Positions 8,801 through 59,383 of a stretch of DNA of 64,000 nt are shown here, piece after piece. The notes beneath the pieces are model-generated. The model searched no databases. It was given only the letters and a program-made list of their open reading frames with translations, and was not told where the DNA came from. The stretch's first letter is position 1; each line of letters opens with the position of its first letter. The position numbers and the translations under genes are program-made. This DNA comes from Escherichia coli (GTDB lineage Bacteria > Pseudomonadota > Gammaproteobacteria > Enterobacterales > Enterobacteriaceae): NCBI RefSeq assembly GCF_016903815.1, contig NZ_CP069972.1. One strand, 5' to 3'.

Positions 8801-9616
8801 CTGGAAAGTCTGGTCAAAAACCATCAGAAAGGTGACGTGGTGACACTGACACTTCAGAACCGCGAACAATTCATCCTCCCGGGAGAGCAAAAAGCACGTT
8901 TCCGGAATAAGTGGTCCATGGAGTCAGTTACCAACGGGATCTCGGTATCACATGATAATCCGGATAAAGGTCAGCGTATTCAGGCGATTCCGGTCGAAAC
9001 CTTTATGAAAGTGGCTGCGCAAATCAGCCAGGGGTGGCCCGAAGAGATGAAAGCGTTACGTATGCCAGAAAACGTCGGCTCACATCTGTTTATCGGTGAA
9101 GACCGACATCCGGTCTCCGCGCCACAGAACGCAAATCAGGTAACAGAAATAACCAGCGCAGCCCCTGACAAGCTGACACCTGTTCTGGGATCAGTGGATA
9201 AGGATACGCGTGAACTCAACCTGCTACTTGTCCAGAGTGCCGATGAACATCTGCAGGGTGTGGTCCGGCTGAACGGCACATTGTATCCGGCACTGGCCAC
9301 CCCATCAGCCGACAACAGTCAGCTGGTTATCAATGCGCTGACCGACAAAGGTTTACGCTTTGCAGGTTATGGTGAAGCGGTAAACCACGATGCTGACAGC
9401 ACGAATCGCCCCGCACCGGAGCTTATGCAGTTTCATCTGAAAACCCGGGAAGAACCGCTTTTTGCTGCTGTCTACACGCCGGAAAAACAACCTGATGCGT
9501 TGTACCGGAACCTGGGCTTCGAGCAGTCATGGCAGCAGTGGTCCAACAGCCAAAAGCCGGAGGACAGGCAGGAAAAAACTCTGCATCAGGATCTCTCCCA
9601 CAGCCCCGGCCGATGA
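5849..9616 (+). CDS. sogL: SogL-type conjugative DNA primase (1255 aa) with TOPRIM domain and long acidic P/E/S/T-rich linker
   Basis: AGGAG RBS before ATG 5849 (13 codons inside track ORF); TOPRIM motifs LFAEGY...CADNDH; 1255 aa equals recalled SogL length; low-complexity middle third. Confidence 0.85.
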   Translation: MPSVSRYRTWLAVPADEIEDLKKAHPPMNGHTPVIWDKEHKLWFARPGADLSRLDRWLPRPQDVSMNGSDPVTEFAQVLENAGLVLKELPVMDGKIHRVPTADDKKGQKSGAYRGFLDGRPAGWYRDYRSADDSPITWTFSGGEQTDPRARLHLKAHSMQRREDAERELKAQYNRQAAYARRYVNKWPQATAHEYLTRKGIQAAPGVRVNNKNELVIPFSNRNGAIRSYQRIPVTGGKDARILKDSEKTGNWFALGTPRNGQPVLFAEGYATAASLHEATGLPVLMTVDGGNMIAVAENARQKWTQSPFIFCADNDHAIRVNKGIVSATKAAELTGGTVIFPAFTDAEKAQGLTDFNDLDASRGRAAFQHVINAQLEHIGVSTPNSNTPEIREALVIGNLVFTPVHTEEKTMTPTEYPETSPDTGHSHDQGPSLPSATQQEQPAASSSNIADETQSFTSHATENNGKDERHADNVQAQTESSVVQDSPAESPASPESTTASAPDEPAHPAEPPEKVVSVATDKDWREFEAELSQPEKNESQQESGTSPEIPAPAAAPASPEDSPSSETMNESAEPSPSPDAVKEEMTVMTEPDDKQSTGISPDTPREEAVNHVTEDIPLQPEPFLPESDGPEEYENYSAYQELMNNENPEHLQENSDMPSQPDTDHVQADESELQATTDTAEPAVRDEPTPQQPVQSTSPSDNTSSFLDKARGFFTRKKTDSQAHENSDPTPSAETTTTPPIPDSIVYAPERSDAPISLNMDEILKELDWEKRADRTVLYKLDGKPAFIDRVNRLEMVNGASNDDRSVLAALAVATKFYGGVIELTGSDAFKQKAMQLIIEHNIDVRMKLPDQRAELEKLRKEMAVSKDAVVTHQPTPELNRNTPEQPAVPDPVQEKEATQSPASPVAPEASTVSTASAPSPAEPGKTADVAPDEEPPGKLRPGESVTAVLHNFGRAEYAPGKGESFFVELKNRSGSKLYWGEQLESLVKNHQKGDVVTLTLQNREQFILPGEQKARFRNKWSMESVTNGISVSHDNPDKGQRIQAIPVETFMKVAAQISQGWPEEMKALRMPENVGSHLFIGEDRHPVSAPQNANQVTEITSAAPDKLTPVLGSVDKDTRELNLLLVQSADEHLQGVVRLNGTLYPALATPSADNSQLVINALTDKGLRFAGYGEAVNHDADSTNRPAPELMQFHLKTREEPLFAAVYTPEKQPDALYRNLGFEQSWQQWSNSQKPEDRQEKTLHQDLSHSPGR

Positions 9617-12956: not shown

Positions 12957-13660
12957 TGAAACCTGAAACAGAAATAGATGAAACCGGCAGCTTCGGTGAA
13001 CCCGAAGAGAAACCCGCCCCCTTCTGGAAACGTTCCGTCTGGGGGATATCTGTAGCAACATGGGGGCTATGTGCAGTCGTGTTGCTCGCAGCCATATGGT
13101 ATCTGTTCCTGAGAGCGCCATCGGAAACAGGCATGCCTCCGTTTAATGATGCGGATGCTGGCGTACAGACCTGGCAAACCACACAAGAATCATCACCTTC
13201 TGTTCAGTCCACTGAGACTATGACTGTCCGGACAGGAGAAGATATGAGCCAGCTTGCCCGGGATGTAAAAACAGAGCTGGATAACCGCGATGAAAAAATT
13301 CAGGCAACACTGAATATGCTTCACGACAGCATTAACAAGCTGGGCGAAGCTATAAAAAAGGATGAAGAATACGCACAGGAAACGCGCCGTCAGCTGGATG
13401 ATATCCGGAGCCGCCTGAACGGAATAATGACACAGAAAAGCGTCACTGAATCCTCTTCCACACCGCATCCAGCAAAGAAAAAAACGTCGTCTGTTCTTAA
13501 CGGAATGAAAATCATGTCGATGGAAACTGGTATGGCCTGGATTCGCTGGCAGGGTAGTACCTGGGCTGTCAGAGAAGGTCAGACGCTGGGCAATGTGGTG
13601 ATCCAGCGGATTGATCCGACTACCCGGACCATCATCACCAGTGCAGGGACGTTACGCTGA
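12956..13660 (+). CDS. traP: TraP-like T4BSS protein (234 aa)
   Basis: ATGA overlap with traO; single TM, coiled-coil-like region; operon position. Confidence 0.55.
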   Translation: MKPETEIDETGSFGEPEEKPAPFWKRSVWGISVATWGLCAVVLLAAIWYLFLRAPSETGMPPFNDADAGVQTWQTTQESSPSVQSTETMTVRTGEDMSQLARDVKTELDNRDEKIQATLNMLHDSINKLGEAIKKDEEYAQETRRQLDDIRSRLNGIMTQKSVTESSSTPHPAKKKTSSVLNGMKIMSMETGMAWIRWQGSTWAVREGQTLGNVVIQRIDPTTRTIITSAGTLR

Positions 13661-14187
13661 TGAACATGGATGCCCTGACCGCCATTGAGAACTTTGCCAG
13701 CAGTATTTTCAGTGCCGGAATGGATTTCCTGTTTACCTGGGGAGAATTCATCGGGGTGATCAGCATGATTACCCTGTTTGCCCGCGCCCGTTCAGCCGGT
13801 CCGGTAAAAATGTCTCCCGGAAAATTTATTGCGGGGATGTTAACCAGCTGCATGCTCGTATCACTCCCGGCAATGATTAACGCCGGAGGCGTACAAATGG
13901 GATTCAGGGCTGACTCATTTGGCCCGATTGCATATGTACAACCTCAGACGTTTGGCGCTGCTGCTGGCGCAGCAAATGCAGTTCTGTCGCTGGCCAAGCT
14001 GGCCGGTGTGGGATTTGTCATGAACGGGATATCCATCTGGCGCAAGGCCGGACTCGATGGACATACCGCACTGAGTGCCAGTGAATCCGTCAGTAAGGGA
14101 AACGTCAAATTTATTGCCGGCGTCCTGCTGGTCTTTATCGATCGTGTCCTCAATGCCCTGCTGGCAAGCATTGGAATCGTCTTCTGA
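13660..14187 (+). CDS. traQ: TraQ-like integral membrane protein (175 aa)
   Basis: ATGA overlap; multiple hydrophobic helices; operon position. Confidence 0.55.
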   Translation: MNMDALTAIENFASSIFSAGMDFLFTWGEFIGVISMITLFARARSAGPVKMSPGKFIAGMLTSCMLVSLPAMINAGGVQMGFRADSFGPIAYVQPQTFGAAAGAANAVLSLAKLAGVGFVMNGISIWRKAGLDGHTALSASESVSKGNVKFIAGVLLVFIDRVLNALLASIGIVF

Positions 14188-14237
14188 TTTTTTTCACCTT
14201 CATATAAACCACTGATATATCCATTTAAGGAGAAACT

Positions 14238-14642
14238 ATGTCACGTATTCGTGTCGTGGCGGCCCGTCTGTACGCCGCATTTATCCATGCACAACTGTTT
14301 GTAATGTCATGCCGGAGCAAACTGACTAAGTACCTGCTGCTCATTCCCATGATGTTGCTGCCCAAAGCCGTTCTTGCCGATGGAGATCTTGCCGATATGG
14401 TTCGCAATGTTGGTGAAGGTGCTAAAACAGCACAGTCATCATCAATCACTATTGCGCAGTTCATCGGCGTAATTCTGTTTCTCGGGGGCCTGATTGGCCT
14501 GAAAAAAGTTGGGAAACAAGGGGGGATGGGACTGGCTGGTTGCATTGTATCTATCGTCATTGGGGCGGTACTTGTCGCCGGACCTGAAATGATGAGTCGC
14601 AGCCAGAAACAGTTGGGGATTTCCTCAATTTCCATTGGCTAA
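14238..14642 (+). CDS. traR: TraR-like membrane protein (134 aa)
   Basis: AAGGAG RBS; two TM segments; operon position. Confidence 0.5.
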   Translation: MSRIRVVAARLYAAFIHAQLFVMSCRSKLTKYLLLIPMMLLPKAVLADGDLADMVRNVGEGAKTAQSSSITIAQFIGVILFLGGLIGLKKVGKQGGMGLAGCIVSIVIGAVLVAGPEMMSRSQKQLGISSISIG

Positions 14643-14705
14643 TCTTGTCCAGGGCACTGGCATTTATCCGGTGCCCTTCCTATTCGGCAATACAAGGAGG
14701 CACAT

Positions 14706-14894
14706 ATGTCTGCCTGGAGCCCGGAGCACATAACGTTACGACGAACAGAAAACGGCAATGTGATTGCCCACGACAGTCGGGACGATCAGGAATTCATTTT
14801 TGCAGAATGCTGTTCCGATGAAATCGCAAACATCATTCTGGAAGCCGTGAAATGTTACACCAGTACGGAGCCTGCTCATGCAACACAGCATTAA
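14706..14894 (+). CDS. traS: TraS-like small protein (62 aa)
   Basis: AAGGAGG RBS 7 nt before ATG; operon position. Confidence 0.45.
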   Translation: MSAWSPEHITLRRTENGNVIAHDSRDDQEFIFAECCSDEIANIILEAVKCYTSTEPAHATQH

Positions 14895-15678
14895 AGACTT
14901 GTGGTTGTATCCCTTTCCAGAAATTGATGTGGTTCATACTCAGGAGGCACTGTTACCGGAACCGGAATTAACAACGCCCGGTCGATGTATCTGCTGCCGG
15001 CAAAACGTCAGGCACCGTTTCAGACTGGATGACTCATGGCCACTCAGACAGCTTACCGACACAATCAGTAACACACGAGTTCGTCTTAATAAGGCCACAG
15101 AACATCTGGTTAAGTTAATCAGGCGTGGTGAACCAGTCGCAACCGGCAAAAAGGAAAAGTACAACACGGCAGTAAAAGCCGCTGAACGGGCGCTTGAGCA
15201 TGCCCGTCTGTCTGCCAGACGTCTTTCACTCCGCCATGTACAGAAAGCTGAAATCACCAGTACAGAGCCGTTGTCAGGGAAAGAGCAGGAGCTGTTTCAT
15301 GAAGACGGCCCGCCTTACAGCTTATGTGCTTTCTGCCACGCCTGGCATTCACTGAATGGTTATGCCGCAGCACAGGGCGTTATGGTGTGGCTACCCGACC
15401 TTCATCCATCCACGGTCGTGGCCCTTAACCGTCGTTCATTACAGGAAGTTTTCAGTAATGATAAGTTCCGGGTCCGGCGAGGACGGGAAGCGCTCTCTGC
15501 ACTGATGCAAAACAGACTGGCGGTTGAGGATAAATTCCGAAGTTTCCGCCCGGCCGATTTCGCTGACGTTTTTCGTCGCTACCCACCTTCCGGTCGTTCG
15601 CCTCTGCGTGAAAAAATGAACGGTATTGCCCTGATTCTGACACCAGATTCATTCATCAAAAAAGAATACGTTGATTGA
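14878..15678 (+). CDS. traT: TraT-like protein (266 aa)
   Basis: Start overlaps traS end; stop overlaps traU ORF; operon position. Confidence 0.5.
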   Translation: MQHSIKDLWLYPFPEIDVVHTQEALLPEPELTTPGRCICCRQNVRHRFRLDDSWPLRQLTDTISNTRVRLNKATEHLVKLIRRGEPVATGKKEKYNTAVKAAERALEHARLSARRLSLRHVQKAEITSTEPLSGKEQELFHEDGPPYSLCAFCHAWHSLNGYAAAQGVMVWLPDLHPSTVVALNRRSLQEVFSNDKFRVRRGREALSALMQNRLAVEDKFRSFRPADFADVFRRYPPSGRSPLREKMNGIALILTPDSFIKKEYVD

Positions 15679-15767
15679 TTTTTCTTCATGCCACTCCAGC
15701 GCGGGGTGGCATTAAAAAAATCAAACTGCACAAACCTCCCTCCTGTAAGTCCGGAGTTCCCTCACCT

Positions 15768-18700
15768 ATGAACATAAACCGTTTAATCTTCACTATCGAA
15801 GACTGTCTGAACACGCTATCCCGTTTCTCTGTCGCAAGCAGTTTTGTTGAGTATTGCGATTTACGTACTGTAATTGGTCTGGACAGACAGGATCGTGAAC
15901 GTCGCCCATGGCTGAATTCGCCCTATATTGCAGCCACAAAGCGTGGAGAATATCTCTCTGTCTTTGAAGTCAGCGGTGCTTTCAGGGAAATGGATGAAGC
16001 ATCCGACCAGACTGGCTCAGGTTCACTGGAATCGCTGATCACCAGCATGAGTGACAGCCTGAATACGGCATATAAAAACAGCGGTCATAAAATCAGCTGC
16101 GTTTTCGAGCGTGACCCTGAAATGGGGAAAGAGGAAATCGAAGACATGGTCGCCCCACAAAAACGCTCACTGGCTAATACAGGTATCCAGTTACAGGATG
16201 TGGTCGATGAGAAAGTCACAACACTGTCCCCATGGCTGGTCCGGGAGCGTTGCTGGCTGGCGATCTGGAGTGGACCCGACCTTATCAGCAACAGCGATCG
16301 CACTGCCCATGATGAGCTTGTCAGAAGACTGGCTGAACGGGTACCGAAAGCACGCTTTGCCCAGTCCCCCTGGCAGTGGACCTTATCTGCACTGAAAATC
16401 CGCCACGAAGCTTTTCTTGATAATGTGGAACAGGCACTGAGACATTCATCTGATGGCCTGATTCTCCGGCTTCTGGATATACACGAAGTCGGGCGTGAAA
16501 TACGTCGTCAGACAGAACGGTACAGCACACCGCGTAACTGGCAACCCCACCTGCCTGAAGATGCCCAGCCAGCAGGATATCGCTGGACTGACGATGAATC
16601 CGTACTACATGCTCCTTCATTGCATTTGCAGTTATTCAACACGCAGGTGACCACACAGGGCAACCTGGTTCAGGCGGGCGGACTCTGGCACGGAATGGTA
16701 TCGATTACTTTACCTCCGCAAAATCTGCAGACGTTTAACGAACTGGTCCGTGCCGTCCCCCGCGCAGTCCCCTGGCGCATCAGAATGGATCTGATGCCCG
16801 GCGGGATGAAGGCTCTTAATCTGAAGAAAACGCTTCTGACTTACAGCAGCTTCATTTCTGCCGTTCGTCCAATGTATGAATCCGTTATGACCCTGGCGGC
16901 AACGGATGAAAAAGAACCTGTCTGCATAATGACCATCATGGCCTCCACGTGGGGAAAAACACGTGAAATATGCGCACGAAACCAGGCCATTCTGAAATCA
17001 GCCATTGAAGGCTGGGGCGTATGTGGCACCACGACAACATTTGGCGATCCCCGACGCGCCTGGGTGAATACCATTCTCGCGGCATCCGGAGGCTCCGGCC
17101 CGGTTCCCCTGTATCCCCCGTTGTCACATGCCATCTCGCTTTTCCCGCTTAACAGGGCAGGCTCTGTCTGGCGAGGCAAAGGGAATCTGATGTTACATAC
17201 AGAAGACGGTTCCGCATTTGAGGTTGGTCTGGCGTCATCCCAACAAAATAAACATACAGAACTGGCACCAGGCGATCCGGGACTGGGTAAATCAGTTCTG
17301 ATTAATACGTTGTCGGAAATACAGATATCATCTGCTCAGAAAAACCTGCCCTTCATTGCCTATATCGATAAGGGATACAGTGCTCAGGGACTGGTTCAGC
17401 TTATTCGCGACAGTCTTCCTCAGGAAAGAAAAGACGAAGCTGTCGGTATTATTCTGAGCAATGATCCGGACTACACCCGTAACCTTTTTGACGTGATGTA
17501 CGGCGCTAAAAAGCCTATTACGCCGGAAAAGAATTTCATGTCATCGGTGCTGTGTGCTCTCTGTGTCGATACCGGTACCGGTCAACCCTGTAACCCCGGA
17601 GACACCCGACAAATTATCAACCAGCTTATCGAGCTGGCTTTTAAAGAGTACGGTGAAAATAATCCGCGACTTTATCGCGCCTCAACGGAAGAACTGGTGG
17701 ATTCAGCACTGCAGGACTCGGGACTGTATGAAAAACATGATGCAGCCTGGTGGGCCAGATCAACCTGGTTTGAAGTCCGGGATATGCTCCACAATGCCGG
17801 GTATATCATGGCGGCTCAGCGGGCACATTATCAGGCAATGCCCCAGCTTCCCGAAGTGTCCTCGATGCTGGGCCATACCAGTCTCAGGGATGTTTTCGGT
17901 ACTGTTCAGCGTGATGGTTCAAACGAGCTTCTGCTGGACTACATCCGCCGCGCCCTGGAGCAGGGACATAACGACTACCCCATGATATCCGGGTATACCC
18001 GGTTTATGATCAACCCGGAAACCCGGGTTATCGCTGTCGATCTGAATAATGTTGCCGGTGACAAAACGCCTGCAGGCAGGCTTAAAACCGGCATCATGTA
18101 CCTGCTTGCAGGTCAGATCGCCGGTGGTGACTTCACCCTGCCACAATACAGGGATGAAGTGTTAAAGCAGCTTCCACGGGAATACCATGAAATCGCTCTT
18201 AAACGTATTAACCAACTTGATCAGGAGGTTAAGACAAAAGTTTATGATGAACTGCATAACGCCCGGGGCATTGACTTCATCTGGGAAAATCTGGATACCC
18301 AGGAGCGTGAGCAACGCAAGTTTGCTATCCGCACGGTTCTGAGTACGCAGTATCTGAGGGACTACCCGGAAAGCGTTCTTAAGTCAGCAAATACTCTCTG
18401 GTTACTGCGCTACAAACCCGAAGATATCCCCGTACTGAGGGATAACTTCAACGTGCCTGAATTTATGCTGAAACGCTTCCTGAAAATGCCGGAAGGCCCG
18501 GCACCAGATGGTAGTGGTGTTCCTGTTCTGGGAGTATTCAGGGTAAAAAGTGGCACGCTTGCGAGAATACTCAAATTTACCGTCGGTCCACTGGAGCTAT
18601 GGGCGCTGAACTCATCGCCAAAAGACAGTGCCCTGCGTAAAACACTGACAAATAAGTTAGGTTCAGTTCGGGCACGTAAGATTCTGGCCGAAAACTTCCC

Positions 18701-43996: not shown

Positions 43997-45961
43997 TCAG
44001 GCGGCATCAGCCAGGTTAGCGGTGTGTTCAGTGGCATCCGTCTGTGGACGTGGTGCACACATCCAGCCAGGCACCCAGCGGTTGTCTTTCATATGGAACT
44101 CTGCATGTTCAGCCGCATCGCCTTTCTTCATTTTCTCCGCGTCCCGTGCGGCACCGGACAGTCCGGCCTCATTCAGGGCTGCGATAATCTGCGGCTTTTT
44201 CAGGTGTCCGAAGAAGTTTGCTTTTGTCGGCTGCCACCAGTCGCGCATGTGAAAGCCGATGGCGGTTTCCAGCGAGTCCAGCGGACTGCGTGACGTGTGA
44301 CCACACTCGCGGGTCTGGACACCGTTAAGACTGCACGCGGTACAGAAACTGAGCAGGGATAACAGCACCTCCTGGCTAAGTGACAGGAACGTCGTCATAT
44401 CCCGTTCCCATCCTTCCGGCAGCAGGGCAGCAAAACGAGAGTGTTCTGCCATCAGCGCCATGAATGCGGCACCTTCCTTCCCTGACGGTGCATCGCTGGT
44501 CAGCGCATAATGCTCACATTCCAGGCGAATTCTGGCGGGACTACTATGCGCTTTGCTGTCAAACACATTCAGGCAGAGCGTCCATGCCAGCAGTGCCAGG
44601 GATTTGTCCGGTTGCTGCATCAGTGCTGCCTGGACTGCCAGCGTGCGCTCTGAGGTCAATTTAGTCAGCAACGGCAGACTAATTTCCTCCACTGACGCGC
44701 TCTCCAGCCCCTGTTCCGTGCGGTCAGCGTCGTCAGCCACATCATCCTCACTGCGCAACTGCACACCACGCTGGATACACACATTACCGTAACGCCAGGA
44801 CACCACCACGCCACTTCCGGCACGCATCTCCGGCGTCCACGCCCTGACCTTCGCCATGCAGTCAATCAGCTTCATTTCTGCTGCCAGCAGGTCAGATTCC
44901 TCACACTGGTTTTCCAGCGAGTCGTAACGAGCCATCAGTTCGTTCAGACGTTCGTCTTCCGCCTCCGTCAGCACCGCTTCCGGCTCCGGCAGGTTGCGGT
45001 ATGCCCGGGCATCTTCACGGCACTCACCGACAGGCTCCATGCGTCCGGCGCACCATTCCCAGCCTTCGGCTTCCCGAAGGAACTCTGCGACAGCCTGGAG
45101 TTTTTCCAGCAGGGCGGCATCGAGCGCCACGCGGTCGACATAACCGTCCCCGTCATCGCTGAACAAATCGGTGCGCAGTTCGTCTGGCGAGAAGGCATCA
45201 GCCCCCACGAAGCGGAATTTACTGTTCCCCGCCACCGCCACTTCACTTTCGGTCACCAGACGACGAATGGTCTGTACTTCCGGTTTACCGCCCCATCCCG
45301 ACTGGCAGGCGGCTTCAAACACCTGCACCTGACGCGCGGTGTCGTTCTCCAGCGCCAGCGCCTGACAGTGCTCTGTGGTGATGCGGTCTTCTGCCAGCGC
45401 ATCGAGGATAACCGGAGCAAGGTCTGCCAGTTTCAGCATTCGCTGAACGTGGCGGGGTGAATAGCCCAGCAAATCACCGATTTGTGCAGGCGTTTTGCCT
45501 TCCTGCGCCATTGCGCGGAATCCGGCAATCTGTTCGGCAGGGTGCATATCCCGACGCTGACCGTTCTCGGTCATCGATGCGGCAGTCGCCAGCTCCTGCG
45601 GAATGACCTTCACGCGTACAGGCCAGTCAGCCGGAAGGATGTTGCGCTCTGCCAGCATGTTGAGTGCTGCCAGTCGGCGACCGCCTGCGGCGACAGCGTA
45701 ACGGTCACCAGGCAGGGTATGCACGACCAGATTCTGCAGCAGTCCGACGCCCTTAATGGACTCCGCCAGTTCGCTGACGGACTCCGCAGAATACGGCACC
45801 GTGCGCACATTCAGCGGTGATTTAATCAGCGAGGCCAGCGGCACGCTCACTTCCTCCGTCTGCGCCAGCAGGGCAGACAGGACAGTTTCCTGCGTTTTTA
45901 CAGATTTACGGCTTGCTTTGCGGGTGGTTTCTGGTTCACACTTCGTTACAGGCATAATCAT
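43997..45961 (-). CDS. ParB/Srx-like nuclease-domain protein of leading regions (654 aa)
   Basis: N-terminal ParB-like domain (GLLQNLVVH...AGGRRLAA); long acidic C-terminal region; between psiB and ssb. Confidence 0.75.
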   Translation of the reverse strand: MIMPVTKCEPETTRKASRKSVKTQETVLSALLAQTEEVSVPLASLIKSPLNVRTVPYSAESVSELAESIKGVGLLQNLVVHTLPGDRYAVAAGGRRLAALNMLAERNILPADWPVRVKVIPQELATAASMTENGQRRDMHPAEQIAGFRAMAQEGKTPAQIGDLLGYSPRHVQRMLKLADLAPVILDALAEDRITTEHCQALALENDTARQVQVFEAACQSGWGGKPEVQTIRRLVTESEVAVAGNSKFRFVGADAFSPDELRTDLFSDDGDGYVDRVALDAALLEKLQAVAEFLREAEGWEWCAGRMEPVGECREDARAYRNLPEPEAVLTEAEDERLNELMARYDSLENQCEESDLLAAEMKLIDCMAKVRAWTPEMRAGSGVVVSWRYGNVCIQRGVQLRSEDDVADDADRTEQGLESASVEEISLPLLTKLTSERTLAVQAALMQQPDKSLALLAWTLCLNVFDSKAHSSPARIRLECEHYALTSDAPSGKEGAAFMALMAEHSRFAALLPEGWERDMTTFLSLSQEVLLSLLSFCTACSLNGVQTRECGHTSRSPLDSLETAIGFHMRDWWQPTKANFFGHLKKPQIIAALNEAGLSGAARDAEKMKKGDAAEHAEFHMKDNRWVPGWMCAPRPQTDATEHTANLADAA

Positions 45962-56000: not shown

Positions 56001-57271
56001 TGTTTGCACTGGCTGATATCAACAGTTTCTACGCCTCATGTGAAAAAGTTTTCCGCCCGGACCTTCGCAACGAACCGGTCATCGTACTCAGCAATAACGA
56101 TGGCTGTGTGATCGCGCGCAGCCCGGAGGCAAAAGCCCTTGGCATCAGAATGGGGCAGCCCTGGTTTCAGGTGAGACAAATGCGCCTGGAGAAGAAAATA
56201 CATGTATTTTCCAGCAATTATGCGCTGTACCACAGCATGAGCCAACGGGTTATGGCTGTTCTGGAGTCGCTTTCTCCCGCAGTTGAGCCCTACTCAATTG
56301 ATGAAATGTTCATTGATTTGCGGGGGATAAATCATTGCATCTCTCCGGAGATTTTTGGTCATCAGCTCAGGGAACAGGTAAAGAGCTGGACAGGACTCAC
56401 CATGGGGGTGGGCATTGCGCCTACAAAAACGCTGGCTAAAAGTGCCCAGTGGGCAACAAAGCAATGGCCACAGTTTTCCGGTGTGGTCGCGCTGACGGCA
56501 GAAAACCGTAATCGGATCTTGAAGCTACTGGGGTTGCAGCCAGTTGGTGAGGTCTGGGGAGTAGGACGCAGACTGACGGAAAAGCTGAATGCGCTGGGTA
56601 TTAACACAGCACTGCAGCTGGCGCAGGCTAACACGGCATTCATCCGGAAAAACTTCAGCGTCATTCTTGAGCGTACGGTACGCGAACTCAACGGCGAGTC
56701 CTGCATATCTCTGGAAGAAGCACCGCCGGCAAAACAGCAGATTGTCTGTAGTCGCAGTTTTGGTGAACGAATCACAGACAAAGATGCCATGCACCAGGCT
56801 GTTGTTCAGTATGCAGAGCGGGCCGCAGAGAAACTACGTGGGGAGCGTCAGTATTGCCGGCAGGTGACGACATTTGTACGGACATCCCCCTTTGCAGTAA
56901 AAGAACCCTGTTACAGCAATGCCGCTGTGGAAAAGCTTCCATTGCCCACACAGGACAGCCGGGACATTATTGCCGCAGCATGCAGAGCGTTAAACCATGT
57001 CTGGCGTGAAGGGTACCGCTATATGAAGGCAGGTGTCATGCTGGCTGATTTCACACCATCGGGTATAGCGCAGCCGGGATTATTTGATGAAATCCAGCCC
57101 CGTAAAAACAGTGAAAAGTTAATGAAAACACTCGATGAACTGAACCAGTCGGGAAAAGGGAAAGTGTGGTTTGCGGGGCGAGGAACCGCCCCTGAATGGC
57201 AAATGAAACGGGAAATGCTTTCTCCTGCGTATACCACCAGATGGACAGATTTGCCAGTAGCCCAGTTATGA
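56000..57271 (+). CDS. impB: ImpB, UmuC/MucB-like Y-family polymerase subunit (423 aa)
   Basis: MFALADINSFYASCEKVFRPDLRNEPVIVLSNNDGCVIARS... Y-family N-terminus. Confidence 0.9.
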   Translation: MFALADINSFYASCEKVFRPDLRNEPVIVLSNNDGCVIARSPEAKALGIRMGQPWFQVRQMRLEKKIHVFSSNYALYHSMSQRVMAVLESLSPAVEPYSIDEMFIDLRGINHCISPEIFGHQLREQVKSWTGLTMGVGIAPTKTLAKSAQWATKQWPQFSGVVALTAENRNRILKLLGLQPVGEVWGVGRRLTEKLNALGINTALQLAQANTAFIRKNFSVILERTVRELNGESCISLEEAPPAKQQIVCSRSFGERITDKDAMHQAVVQYAERAAEKLRGERQYCRQVTTFVRTSPFAVKEPCYSNAAVEKLPLPTQDSRDIIAAACRALNHVWREGYRYMKAGVMLADFTPSGIAQPGLFDEIQPRKNSEKLMKTLDELNQSGKGKVWFAGRGTAPEWQMKREMLSPAYTTRWTDLPVAQL

Positions 57272-57292
57272 ATATGTAATCCACCCATAATA

Positions 57293-57366
57293 TTGTTATC
57301 CTGTTATCCTGCTATCTTGTTATCTTGTTATCTTGTTATCTTGTTATCTTGTTATCTTGTTATCTT
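57293..57366. repeat. Upstream array of ~9 direct 8-bp repeats (TTGTTATC): centromere-like iterons
   Basis: Tandem unit read directly. Confidence 0.8.
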
Positions 57367-57379
57367 AATTAATCTATAA

Positions 57380-57490
57380 ATCAAATACTTAACAACTTGC
57401 TAAGTTGTTAACATAACAAAAATAATTGCATGGTTCGCGTTCAGATGGCAATATTAAGTTGTTAACTTAACAGCTTAATATGAGGCTATA
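57380..57490 (+). promoter_or_regulatory. par promoter/operator region with palindromes
   Basis: TTAACAACTTGCTAAGTTGTTAA and TTAAGTTGTTAACTTAA upstream of parA-like start. Confidence 0.4.
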
Positions 57491-58117
57491 ATGATAATAG
57501 TATTAGGTAGTCAAAAGGGTGGGGTAGGTAAAAGTACACTGGCGGTATCTATAGCTGCGTATCTGATGTCACTAGGCAATAGAGTGATTATTGTCGACGC
57601 AGATGACCAGAAATCAGTATTAACCTGGTACAACAATCGCCCTGAAGATCTCCCTCATATTCCGGTTACAGGCGCGACAGGTAACATCAAAGCCATGTTA
57701 AAGGAACACGAAAAATCCTATGATTTTGTTATTGCAGACTGTGCTGGCCGTGATAGCGCAGAAATGCGTAGTGGATTGATGGCCGCAGATGTATTCATTT
57801 CTCCTTTGCGCCCATCTCAGATGGACCTGGATGTTGTGCCTCATACATGCTCCGTTTTTACAGCAGCAAAAGATTTTAATGAGGATGTTCGGGGATATCT
57901 CGTTTTAAACATGACGCCCACAAATATGTTTGTTAATGAAGCCAATGAGGCAGCTGAAGTACTTAAGGATTACCCTGAAATGCATCTGGCAAACTCCCGG
58001 GTATGTGATCGTAAAGCACATCGAGATGCTTGGGCCGAATCAATGACAATTTTTGAAACGCAAAATGATAAAGCCCAGCAAGAAATCGAAGCGTTAGTGA
58101 AAGAGGTTATTCTGTGA
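57491..58117 (+). CDS. parA: ParA/ParF-like small Walker-type partition ATPase (208 aa)
   Basis: Deviant Walker A GSQKGGVGKST. Confidence 0.85.
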   Translation: MIIVLGSQKGGVGKSTLAVSIAAYLMSLGNRVIIVDADDQKSVLTWYNNRPEDLPHIPVTGATGNIKAMLKEHEKSYDFVIADCAGRDSAEMRSGLMAADVFISPLRPSQMDLDVVPHTCSVFTAAKDFNEDVRGYLVLNMTPTNMFVNEANEAAEVLKDYPEMHLANSRVCDRKAHRDAWAESMTIFETQNDKAQQEIEALVKEVIL

Positions 58118-58416
58118 GAAATAGAGCAAACACTTCACCTCGTGACGAGGCAGCATTTATTAACGGTGGCACGGCTGGCCTTGATAATACCAAAAAGTCA
58201 TCAGATAAATCATCGGTTGTAAGCAAAGCAAAACCAGTGAGTATTTCTTTTTTTGAAGAAAACCTAAAAGACATTGATGCCCTTATAACGGCTGAGATGG
58301 TTTCAGGTAAAGGCAGAGTGAATCGTTCTGATGTTGTCAGGGCGGCGGTAGAAGCACTTAAAACACTATCAAAAACAGAGGTATCACGATTGATAGCAGA
58401 AGTAAAACAAAGATAA
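58114..58416 (+). CDS. ParG-like centromere-binding protein with C-terminal RHH (100 aa)
   Basis: Translationally coupled to parA; C-terminal GRVNRSDVVRAAVEALK RHH-like. Confidence 0.6.
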   Translation: MRNRANTSPRDEAAFINGGTAGLDNTKKSSDKSSVVSKAKPVSISFFEENLKDIDALITAEMVSGKGRVNRSDVVRAAVEALKTLSKTEVSRLIAEVKQR

Positions 58417-58420
58417 CACC

Positions 58421-58486
58421 TTGTTATCTTGTTATCTTGTTATCTTGTTATCTTGTTATCTTGTTATCTTGTTATCTTGTTATCTT
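58421..58486. repeat. Downstream array of ~8 direct 8-bp repeats (TTGTTATC)
   Basis: Same unit as upstream array. Confidence 0.8.
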
Positions 58487-58541
58487 CAATGTATTTTAGG
58501 ATGACCTATGTTGAATAGAACCTAAAACAAAACAAATATTA

Positions 58542-58833
58542 ATAGGGGTCCGCTTGGAAAAGGGAAATTTTCCCACGCTAAGAGAATTGAGTTGAACGAG
58601 TGGTTACATCCAGGCCAGCTAACTCACTGAACGTAAAGGCTGTACGAAATGTTCCGGCCGTCCGATAACCGTTTGGCTTACTTCCGTACATTCCCTTGCG
58701 TAGATGTACAGAATTGTACGATTTCGGACACCAAAACCGCTGTTGTCCCGCCATTCTGGCGATTCCTGAAAGTCCTTTGACTAAAAAATAGTCTTAACGT
58801 GGTTTATTTTCCGAATTCCAAGCGGACCCCTAT
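58542..58833. mobile_element. 292-bp element bounded by 18-bp perfect terminal inverted repeats (MITE/IS-remnant-like)
   Basis: ATAGGGGTCCGCTTGGAA at 58542-58559, reverse complement at 58816-58833; no ORF inside. Confidence 0.4.
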
Positions 58834-59035
58834 CAGGCCTGCCGTGGGGATTTTGTGGTGCGTCTCGACGGCAGCACCTGTCTGCAGTTATGGAATAAAG
58901 AAGGCAGGGTGGTACGCCGGGAGGGCGATCCGCTGGAAGTGGCGCAGTGGCTGCTGGCCTGTCATGACGCAGGAATAGAAGTTCGCGTACAGATAAATGA
59001 AAGTGCCGCTCCGTAAGAACACGCCTGTGCACGGT

Positions 59036-59383
59036 TTACACATCATCCCATGGTGGCAGCCGGTTAACTTTCCTGCGCCACCAGTGGAAAGAGGCCATGC
59101 ACAGTCCGAACAAAAAACCCCCCGTGATACTTATAATAATGGCCTCACCTGCCACCATTCCTGACGGCCCCCAGTAGATAAACCACATTGCACATCCCCA
59201 GGAAATGCCCCATAAGCCCCCCGTCAGCACCGTGACCTGCCAGAACGGCATAAAGGGTAATGGCGGAAGCCGGATACCCAGCCGCCATAGAATACGCAGA
59301 AGAGGAGGGGCATAATTGCTCCGCCACATCTTTTTGCTGTCCATCAGGGCAATGGCCCGGGCTTTTTTCTGCTCAAAGGTCAC
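59036..59383 (-). CDS. Hypothetical Trp-rich membrane protein (115 aa, GTG start)
   Basis: GGAGG 7 nt before GTG; 2-3 TM helices; adjacent to immunity gene. Confidence 0.45.
   Translation of the reverse strand: MTFEQKKARAIALMDSKKMWRSNYAPPLLRILWRLGIRLPPLPFMPFWQVTVLTGGLWGISWGCAMWFIYWGPSGMVAGEAIIISITGGFLFGLCMASFHWWRRKVNRLPPWDDV

Follow-up and report, generated by a model that had tools for sequence, protein, structure and literature searches.

What is the role of two arrays of the same octamer that bracket a pair of small genes in the window (that is, the whole 64-kb stretch of DNA that was analyzed)? The initial annotation read this segment as a partition cassette. Its array coordinates and copy numbers (about 9 upstream and about 8 downstream) are reproduced by Tandem Repeats Finder and by direct reading, and the open reading frames confirm its gene order, with an ATPase followed by the gene for a small DNA-binding protein between the arrays. 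We ask what these genes are, whether the system is already known, and what the arrays do.

The cassette and the pESBL partition locus

The cassette consists of these features:

57293..57366, plus strand: array A, the upstream parS array, with 9 direct 8-bp units and a partial TT
57491..58117, plus strand: parA, which encodes a type Ib Walker ATPase of 208 aa
58114..58416, plus strand: parB, which encodes 100 aa and begins with a GTG that shares bases with the parA stop (GTGA)
58412..58419, minus strand: a single inverted imperfect box, GATAACAC, which abuts array B on its 5' side
58421..58486, plus strand: array B, the downstream parS array, with 8 perfect direct TTGTTATC units and a partial TT

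Tandem Repeats Finder gives array A (57293-57366) a period of 8, 9.2 copies, and 93% matches, and gives array B (58420-58486) a period of 8, 8.4 copies, and 100% matches. Read directly, the units of array A are, in order, TTGTTATC, CTGTTATC, CTGCTATC, and six perfect copies of TTGTTATC (57293-57364), and then the partial TT. The perfect units of array B span 58421-58484, and the first of them lies 4 nt past the parB stop. The inverted box includes the parB stop codon TAA (58414-58416), and the box and the first unit of array B make up GATAACA-cct-TGTTATC. Array units were also scanned as exact and 1-mismatch matches. The exact octamer occurs 19 times in the window, with 15 of the 19 copies inside the two arrays, while dinucleotide-preserving shuffles of the window contain 1.9 copies on average and 6 at most. 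The only Rfam match in 57000-59200 was to CrcZ at 14.5 bits, which is at chance level, so the arrays contain no RNA element.

The parA and parB reading frames share 4 nt (GTGA), an overlap suggestive of translational coupling, and a terminator scan found no intrinsic terminator after parB. A Shine-Dalgarno sequence (GAGG, 57482-57485) lies 5 nt before the parA start. ParA has the features of a type Ib ATPase: it is small, it has a deviant Walker A motif (KGGVGKST, residues 9-16), and it has no N-terminal DNA-binding domain. It matches the generic ParA/MinD-type Pfam families MipZ, AAA_31, and CbiA, and it matches NCBIfam ParA_partition over its full length (1e-45), with a score of 155.8 bits that is below the 180-bit equivalog cut-off. 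In a PDB search, the best solved relative was ParF of TP228 (4dzz; E 2.3e-14, 26% identity over 195 positions), with residues 6-207 of ParA aligned to 7-202 of ParF. On sequence grounds, ParA is a homolog of ParF, yet not a close family member.

These genes have been studied before. Daniel et al. (2020) examined the IncI plasmid pESBL of E. coli O104:H4, whose ParA reading frame had previously been annotated too short, without its Walker A motif (PMC7602700). They found that the adjacent hypothetical protein Hp7 (ParB, 100 aa) forms GFP foci that depend on pESBL and that the cloned par locus stabilizes an unstable mini-F (PMC7602700). In gel shift assays (EMSA), Hp7/ParB binds octamer repeats with the consensus GATAACAA, in direct or inverted arrangement, and the number of shifted complexes equals the number of repeats (seven or eight on seven- or eight-repeat probes); the pESBL equivalent of array B is a "7-DR"-type probe that ParB binds (PMC7602700). 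The system was classed as type Ib, with parS arrays on both sides, and was compared with pB171 and pSM19035 (PMC7602700). A par-deleted pESBL plasmid was mislocalized to the poles, but its retention was not reduced, because conjugative re-transfer and the killing of plasmid-free cells compensate (PMC7602700).

The proteins of the window are 100% identical to those of pESBL-EA11 (NC_018659.1): ParA, with the N-terminal Walker A extension included, to WP_000587689.1 and ParB to Hp7 (WP_001245884.1). Over the stretch of leader that was aligned, a single base differs, and GATAACAA is the reverse complement of TTGTTATC. Given the identical proteins, the near-identical leader, and the matching octamer, the window locus is almost certainly the published pESBL-type type Ib partition cassette. 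The reading as a partition cassette is thus supported by work on the same proteins and octamer: the locus was already known and was validated experimentally for identical proteins in 2020. For that reason, its presence here is not unexpected.

pESBL-EA11 also resembles the window in gene order and in the position of the cassette directly after umuC/impB, and the only difference is in the repeat layout. Upstream, there are 9 units in the window and 7 in pESBL; downstream, the window has 1 inverted and 8 direct units, whereas pESBL has 4-5 inverted and about 10 direct ones, with TTGTCATC variants. In other words, pESBL has four more inverted boxes than the window at the position of GATAACAC. We also observed that the downstream array of pESBL-EA11 continues straight into a terminal inverted repeat of Tn3 (GGGGTCTGACGCTCAGTGGAACGAAAAC...), next to TEM-1, so the plasmid that was used in the published experiments seems to have a transposon inserted at or in its centromere array.

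ParB and the leader of the operon

ParB has no meaningful match in Pfam, NCBIfam, or PDB as a single sequence, or in PDB as a profile, and the ParG family is absent among the Pfam families listed. This agrees with the statement that no DNA-binding motif was predicted in it (PMC7602700). There are 164 detectable homologs of ParB (55-100% identity), and all of the organism-named ones are from Enterobacterales. In an alignment of 49 of the 164, the N-terminal tail (residues 1-22) is conserved, with the segment MRNR..(R/K)DE..FI.GG; the linker (residues 23-37) is variable; and the segment KAKPVS is invariant, as is the NRSD helix cap. The conserved tail is rich in arginine and has a short predicted helix at residues 12-16.

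An AlphaFold model built on the same alignment has a mean pLDDT of 78, with values of 88-97 across residues 41-100. The model has a disordered tail, an extended segment (41-47), and three helices (48-64, 71-82, and 87-98). Two further attempts were uninformative about the fold: a Foldseek comparison of the monomer model with PDB gave no match at E below 1, and a head-to-tail self-fusion, modeled as a pseudo-dimer with a matching alignment, reached a pLDDT of 50.6 with no ribbon assigned. On a set of weak, concordant signals, ParB probably has a ribbon-helix-helix (RHH) fold. The fold is a point that the 2020 study left open (PMC7602700); we found nothing beyond that paper in later literature on the RHH fold of pESBL ParB or on the octamer. 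The initial annotation had called ParB "ParG-like," which holds for its architecture, as a fold-level resemblance, and fails for its sequence family, as there is no PDB or Pfam match. The tail of ParG docks on ParF and stimulates its ATPase (PMC7308502), and by analogy the tail of ParB may dock on ParA and stimulate its ATPase.

The window also encodes a large protein of the ParB/RepB/Spo0J family (44000-45955, minus strand) in the leading region, where it adjoins ssb. It is unrelated to the small ParB. Its counterpart in the reference plasmid has 652 aa and is 93% identical, and the gene extends past the start of the queried stretch.

The leader, from array A to the start codon of parA, is 124 bp long, and a repeat search found two strong palindromes inside it. 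The features of the leader are:

57389..57419, no strand: operator-like site O1, a palindrome with a 15-bp head-to-head box pair; putative function
57426..57455, plus strand: candidate par promoter, with -35 TTGCAT (57426-57431), an 18-nt spacer, and -10 AATATT (57450-57455)
57451..57481, no strand: operator-like site O2, the palindrome ATATTAAGTTGTTAA-c-TTAACAGCTTAATAT; putative function

The palindrome of O1 (TTAACAACTT-gct-AAGTTGTTAA, 57389-57411) has 10-nt arms that are 100% complementary, and its 15-bp box pair, TTGTTAACATAACAA, is at 57405-57419. The arms of O2 are 15 nt long and 93% complementary, and its box pair, TTGTTAACTTAACAG (57459-57473), lies inside the palindrome. O2 overlaps the -10 hexamer and the expected transcription start, ends just 5' of the GAGG, and is the best-conserved non-coding block in the alignment of the close clade. 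The pattern TTGTTAACWTAACAR has two matches in the window, which are the two leader box pairs, and none would be expected by chance. The box pairs are 54 bp apart and flank the candidate promoter.

In the alignment of homologous leaders, the hexamers TTGCAT and AATATT are kept while the spacer varies. This site scores below the threshold of a consensus promoter scan. The best site in that scan, TTGCTA-N18-AATAAT (57397-57426), is not conserved in the homologs, so we prefer TTGCAT-N18-AATATT as the likely par promoter. The two palindromic box pairs suggest a separate operator, and, as in related systems, parAB may be autoregulated by the binding of ParB to the leader palindromes.

Spread of the cassette and drift of its arrays

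A megablast search with 57200-58600 matched 2,518 plasmid records, and 1,261 of these contain at least 80% of the query. They are mostly from Escherichia, Klebsiella, Salmonella, and Shigella. The cassette is a widespread inheritance module, with at least 1,261 sequenced plasmids that carry it, many of them ESBL or other resistance plasmids, and it is a possible target for plasmid curing or incompatibility. In the window, it is flanked on one side by a dinI-like gene, umuD, and umuC/impB genes and on the other side by a DUF6404 gene, a colicin immunity gene, and a gene for a 626-aa colicin of the Ia/Ib type; by their content, these genes identify an IncI-type backbone. Elsewhere the neighborhoods differ (RepB, umuC, ParM, and endonuclease-like genes). 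For modules from Klebsiella, with 87.6% DNA identity, the alignment (query 91-1287) begins precisely where array A begins and stops where array B stops, so the arrays mark the edges of a mobile module.

Two observations concern the surroundings of the cassette. First, the interval that separates array B from the DUF6404 gene (58487-59035, about 550 bp) is a mosaic, as noted at 58544-58750. Its sub-segments (query 58-264/343 and 345-549) have thousands of matches each, 4,879 plasmid records from Enterobacterales in all, most of them without the par cassette; the first segment is nowhere annotated, the whole stretch is present in 84 records only, and it contains no Rfam RNA family. Second, a chromosome-sized contig (5.17 Mb) of Pantoea sp. 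BAV 3049 has a complete cassette with arrays on both sides (93-1219), whose ParA and ParB are 98% and 94% identical to those of the window. Integration of a plasmid could explain this, and so could a join made in assembly.

The number of repeats varies across near-identical plasmids, from 3 to 11 upstream and from 4 to 15 downstream:

Two IncI-gamma/K1 plasmids: 5 units upstream, 7 downstream
E. coli O91:H21 plasmid: 5 units upstream, 15 downstream
IncF/IncI hybrid plasmid: 3 units upstream, 4 downstream
K. pneumoniae IncFII plasmid: 11 units upstream (five of them TTGCTATC), 9 downstream

Among ParB homologs at 58-77% identity, the 8-bp period and the position of an array right after the parB stop are kept, while the sequence and the orientation of the unit differ (TTAGTATC, TTAATAAG, and TTACTATC):

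Salmonella (L020), ParB 77% identical: TTAGTATC x10 upstream and TTGTTATC x4 downstream
Pantoea (L006): TTAATAAG x7
Pantoea (L010): TTAGTATC x4 plus inverted copies
Atlantibacter (L012): two arrays in inverted orientation, ATAACAAC x10 and GATAGTAA x8
Enterobacter hormaechei (L019): GATGTTAA x4
Metagenome contig (L021): ATAACAAG x5
Metagenome scaffold (L008), whose ParB is named by NCBI from Citrobacter farmeri, 58% identical: TTGTTATC x8

In L012, a JGI metagenome contig, the two arrays are consecutive and lie past parB (2301-2485), inverted relative to the window. L020 (ABLHVZ010000019.1) has two distinct octamers, in arrays at 1170-1265 and 2307-2340: either its ParB tolerates both octamers or a recombinant cassette has formed.

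Do both arrays serve as the centromere? One alternative is a division of labor, in which only array B is the working centromere and array A, with the leader palindromes, is mainly an operator or affinity sink for autoregulation, as has been proposed for parC1 of pB171. The 2020 study left the role of the upstream array unsettled and states that parC1 of pB171 regulates transcription (PMC7602700), and the distant homologs L006, L008, and L012 have a homogeneous downstream array and a degenerate upstream one. However, 60 bp separate the end of array A from the candidate -35, with no overlap, and in the window's own clade arrays A and B are equally perfect. Also, centromere activity in TP228 belongs to the distal parH array as well as to the operator OF (PMC3130281). 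We consider such a division of labor unlikely.

A second alternative is that the arrays are neutral microsatellites, prone to slippage, with the leader box pairs as the true binding sites of ParB. The high variability of array copy number among near-identical plasmids would fit this, and so would the occurrence of the repeat by itself, which we examined by searching one genome per species, from about 100,000 species, for the exact (TTGTTATC)x4. This yielded 17 stretches. ParA/ParB homologs are present at seven of them (on six contigs, all from Enterobacterales). Another is an orphan array in K. pneumoniae ATCC 13883, with 11 GATAACAA units that are flanked by an integrase-like ORF and an IS-type transposase ORF (scaffold3, 9268-9355); the fetched locus has neither parA nor parB, and the array is probably a remnant after the loss of the par genes. 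The other nine come from unrelated organisms, including Shewanella, Arthrobacter, Psychrobacter, Pseudoalteromonas, and MAGs from Bacillota, Yanofskybacteria, and Methanosarcinales, and have no ParA in their vicinity. These arrays are intergenic, with 4-9 copies, and they appear to be independent microsatellites. As TTGTTATC arrays can arise without par genes, the repeat alone is not diagnostic; the diagnostic signature is two arrays that flank parAB. Three findings speak against the microsatellite reading: 8-bp arrays are found at both positions down to 58% ParB identity despite the changed unit, which is not expected of neutral repeats; the Klebsiella and IncI modules resemble each other right up to the outer ends of the arrays and no further; and ParB binds the arrays in vitro with stoichiometric laddering (PMC7602700). 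This reading is highly improbable.

Finally, the initial annotation used the word "iteron," and in two homologous loci the cassette is preceded, at a distance of a few hundred bp, by a Rep gene (RepB in L003 and Rep3 in L021), but it is even less probable that the arrays are replication-origin iterons or another Rep-binding element, as no rep gene adjoins them in the window (the neighbors are umuC/impB and colicin genes), they accompany parAB on different replicon types and in contexts without rep (umuC, ParM, and endonuclease-like genes), and their units are 8 bp long and are bound directly by ParB (PMC7602700). Both the replication-iteron and the neutral-microsatellite readings are effectively excluded.

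With the arrays read as ParB-binding centromere sites, the homologs also say something about recognition. The units mostly fit TTnnTAnn, and the putative DNA-reading strand, KAKPVS, is invariant, from which we infer that ParB may combine a loose direct readout with cooperativity that depends on spacing. A tentative view of the family, which has perhaps somewhat less than an even chance of being right, is that an RHH ParB with a fixed KAKPVS strand reads a loose TTnnTAnn core at strict 8-bp spacing, that the units, their orientation, and their copy number drift quickly by slippage (L020, with its two octamers, would be an example), and that the 15-bp box pairs, rather than the arrays, set the autoregulation. 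If true, this would show how type Ib centromeres diversify with a fixed protein reading head. This family-level picture is absent from published work. Overall, what we add to the published system is incremental and consists of a probable RHH fold, candidate operators, and a family-wide 8-bp period with drifting units and copy number.

Proposed mechanism and comparison with other partition systems

The mechanism with the best support is the usual type Ib scheme, in which ParB dimers bind the TTGTTATC units cooperatively, with one complex per 8-bp unit, and would cover the two arrays and so build partition complexes. With a step of 8 bp, each dimer would be rotated by roughly 274 degrees round B-DNA relative to the one before it, and the dimers would wind round the duplex. 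This winding is suggested by geometry and by analogy to ParG on parH. The conserved disordered tail of ParB would then engage nucleoid-associated ParA-ATP and stimulate its ATPase, and the sister plasmids would be separated and given their places over the nucleoid ahead of division. The two palindromic box pairs around the promoter are probably ParB sites as well, and ParB bound there would repress parAB.

The same backbone position can hold a different par set. In an R64-like IncI1 plasmid (NZ_LS992187.1, IncI1/B/O), the slot after umuC and before the colicin genes, which corresponds to 57272-58500 of the window, is occupied (13276-17077) by ParM and its partner, a 214-aa ParA, a 102-aa protein, and a site-specific integrase (resD). 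This set combines ParM/ParR with a ParA that is from a different family and is only 24% identical to the ParA of the window, and the 102-aa protein has no significant similarity to the window's ParB. Conversely, the ParM system and the alternative ParA are absent from the window. Thus, the partition module at this position is exchangeable.

Among type Ib-like repeats, those of pB171 par2 are 6 bp long and the omega heptads of pSM19035 are 7 bp long, and both differ from the window's octamer in length and in sequence.

A further parallel is with TP228. Its ParF is a full-length homolog of the window's ParA. ParG and ParB are both small, with a disordered N-terminal tail and a C-terminal domain that is of the RHH type in ParG and probably so in ParB, while searches of PDB by single sequence and by profile and of Pfam, among the families listed, found no sequence homology between them. 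The centromere of TP228 consists of 4-bp ACTC boxes with 4-bp AT-rich spacers and binds one ParG dimer per box, and it has a distal array of mostly direct boxes followed by the operator OF, of mixed orientation (PMC3130281). Both systems have an 8-bp period, but the unit in the window is TTGTTATC instead of ACTC boxes. The order of the elements is also the same: parH, OF, and parFG in TP228 correspond to the distal direct array, the promoter-proximal inverted boxes, and the genes in the window.
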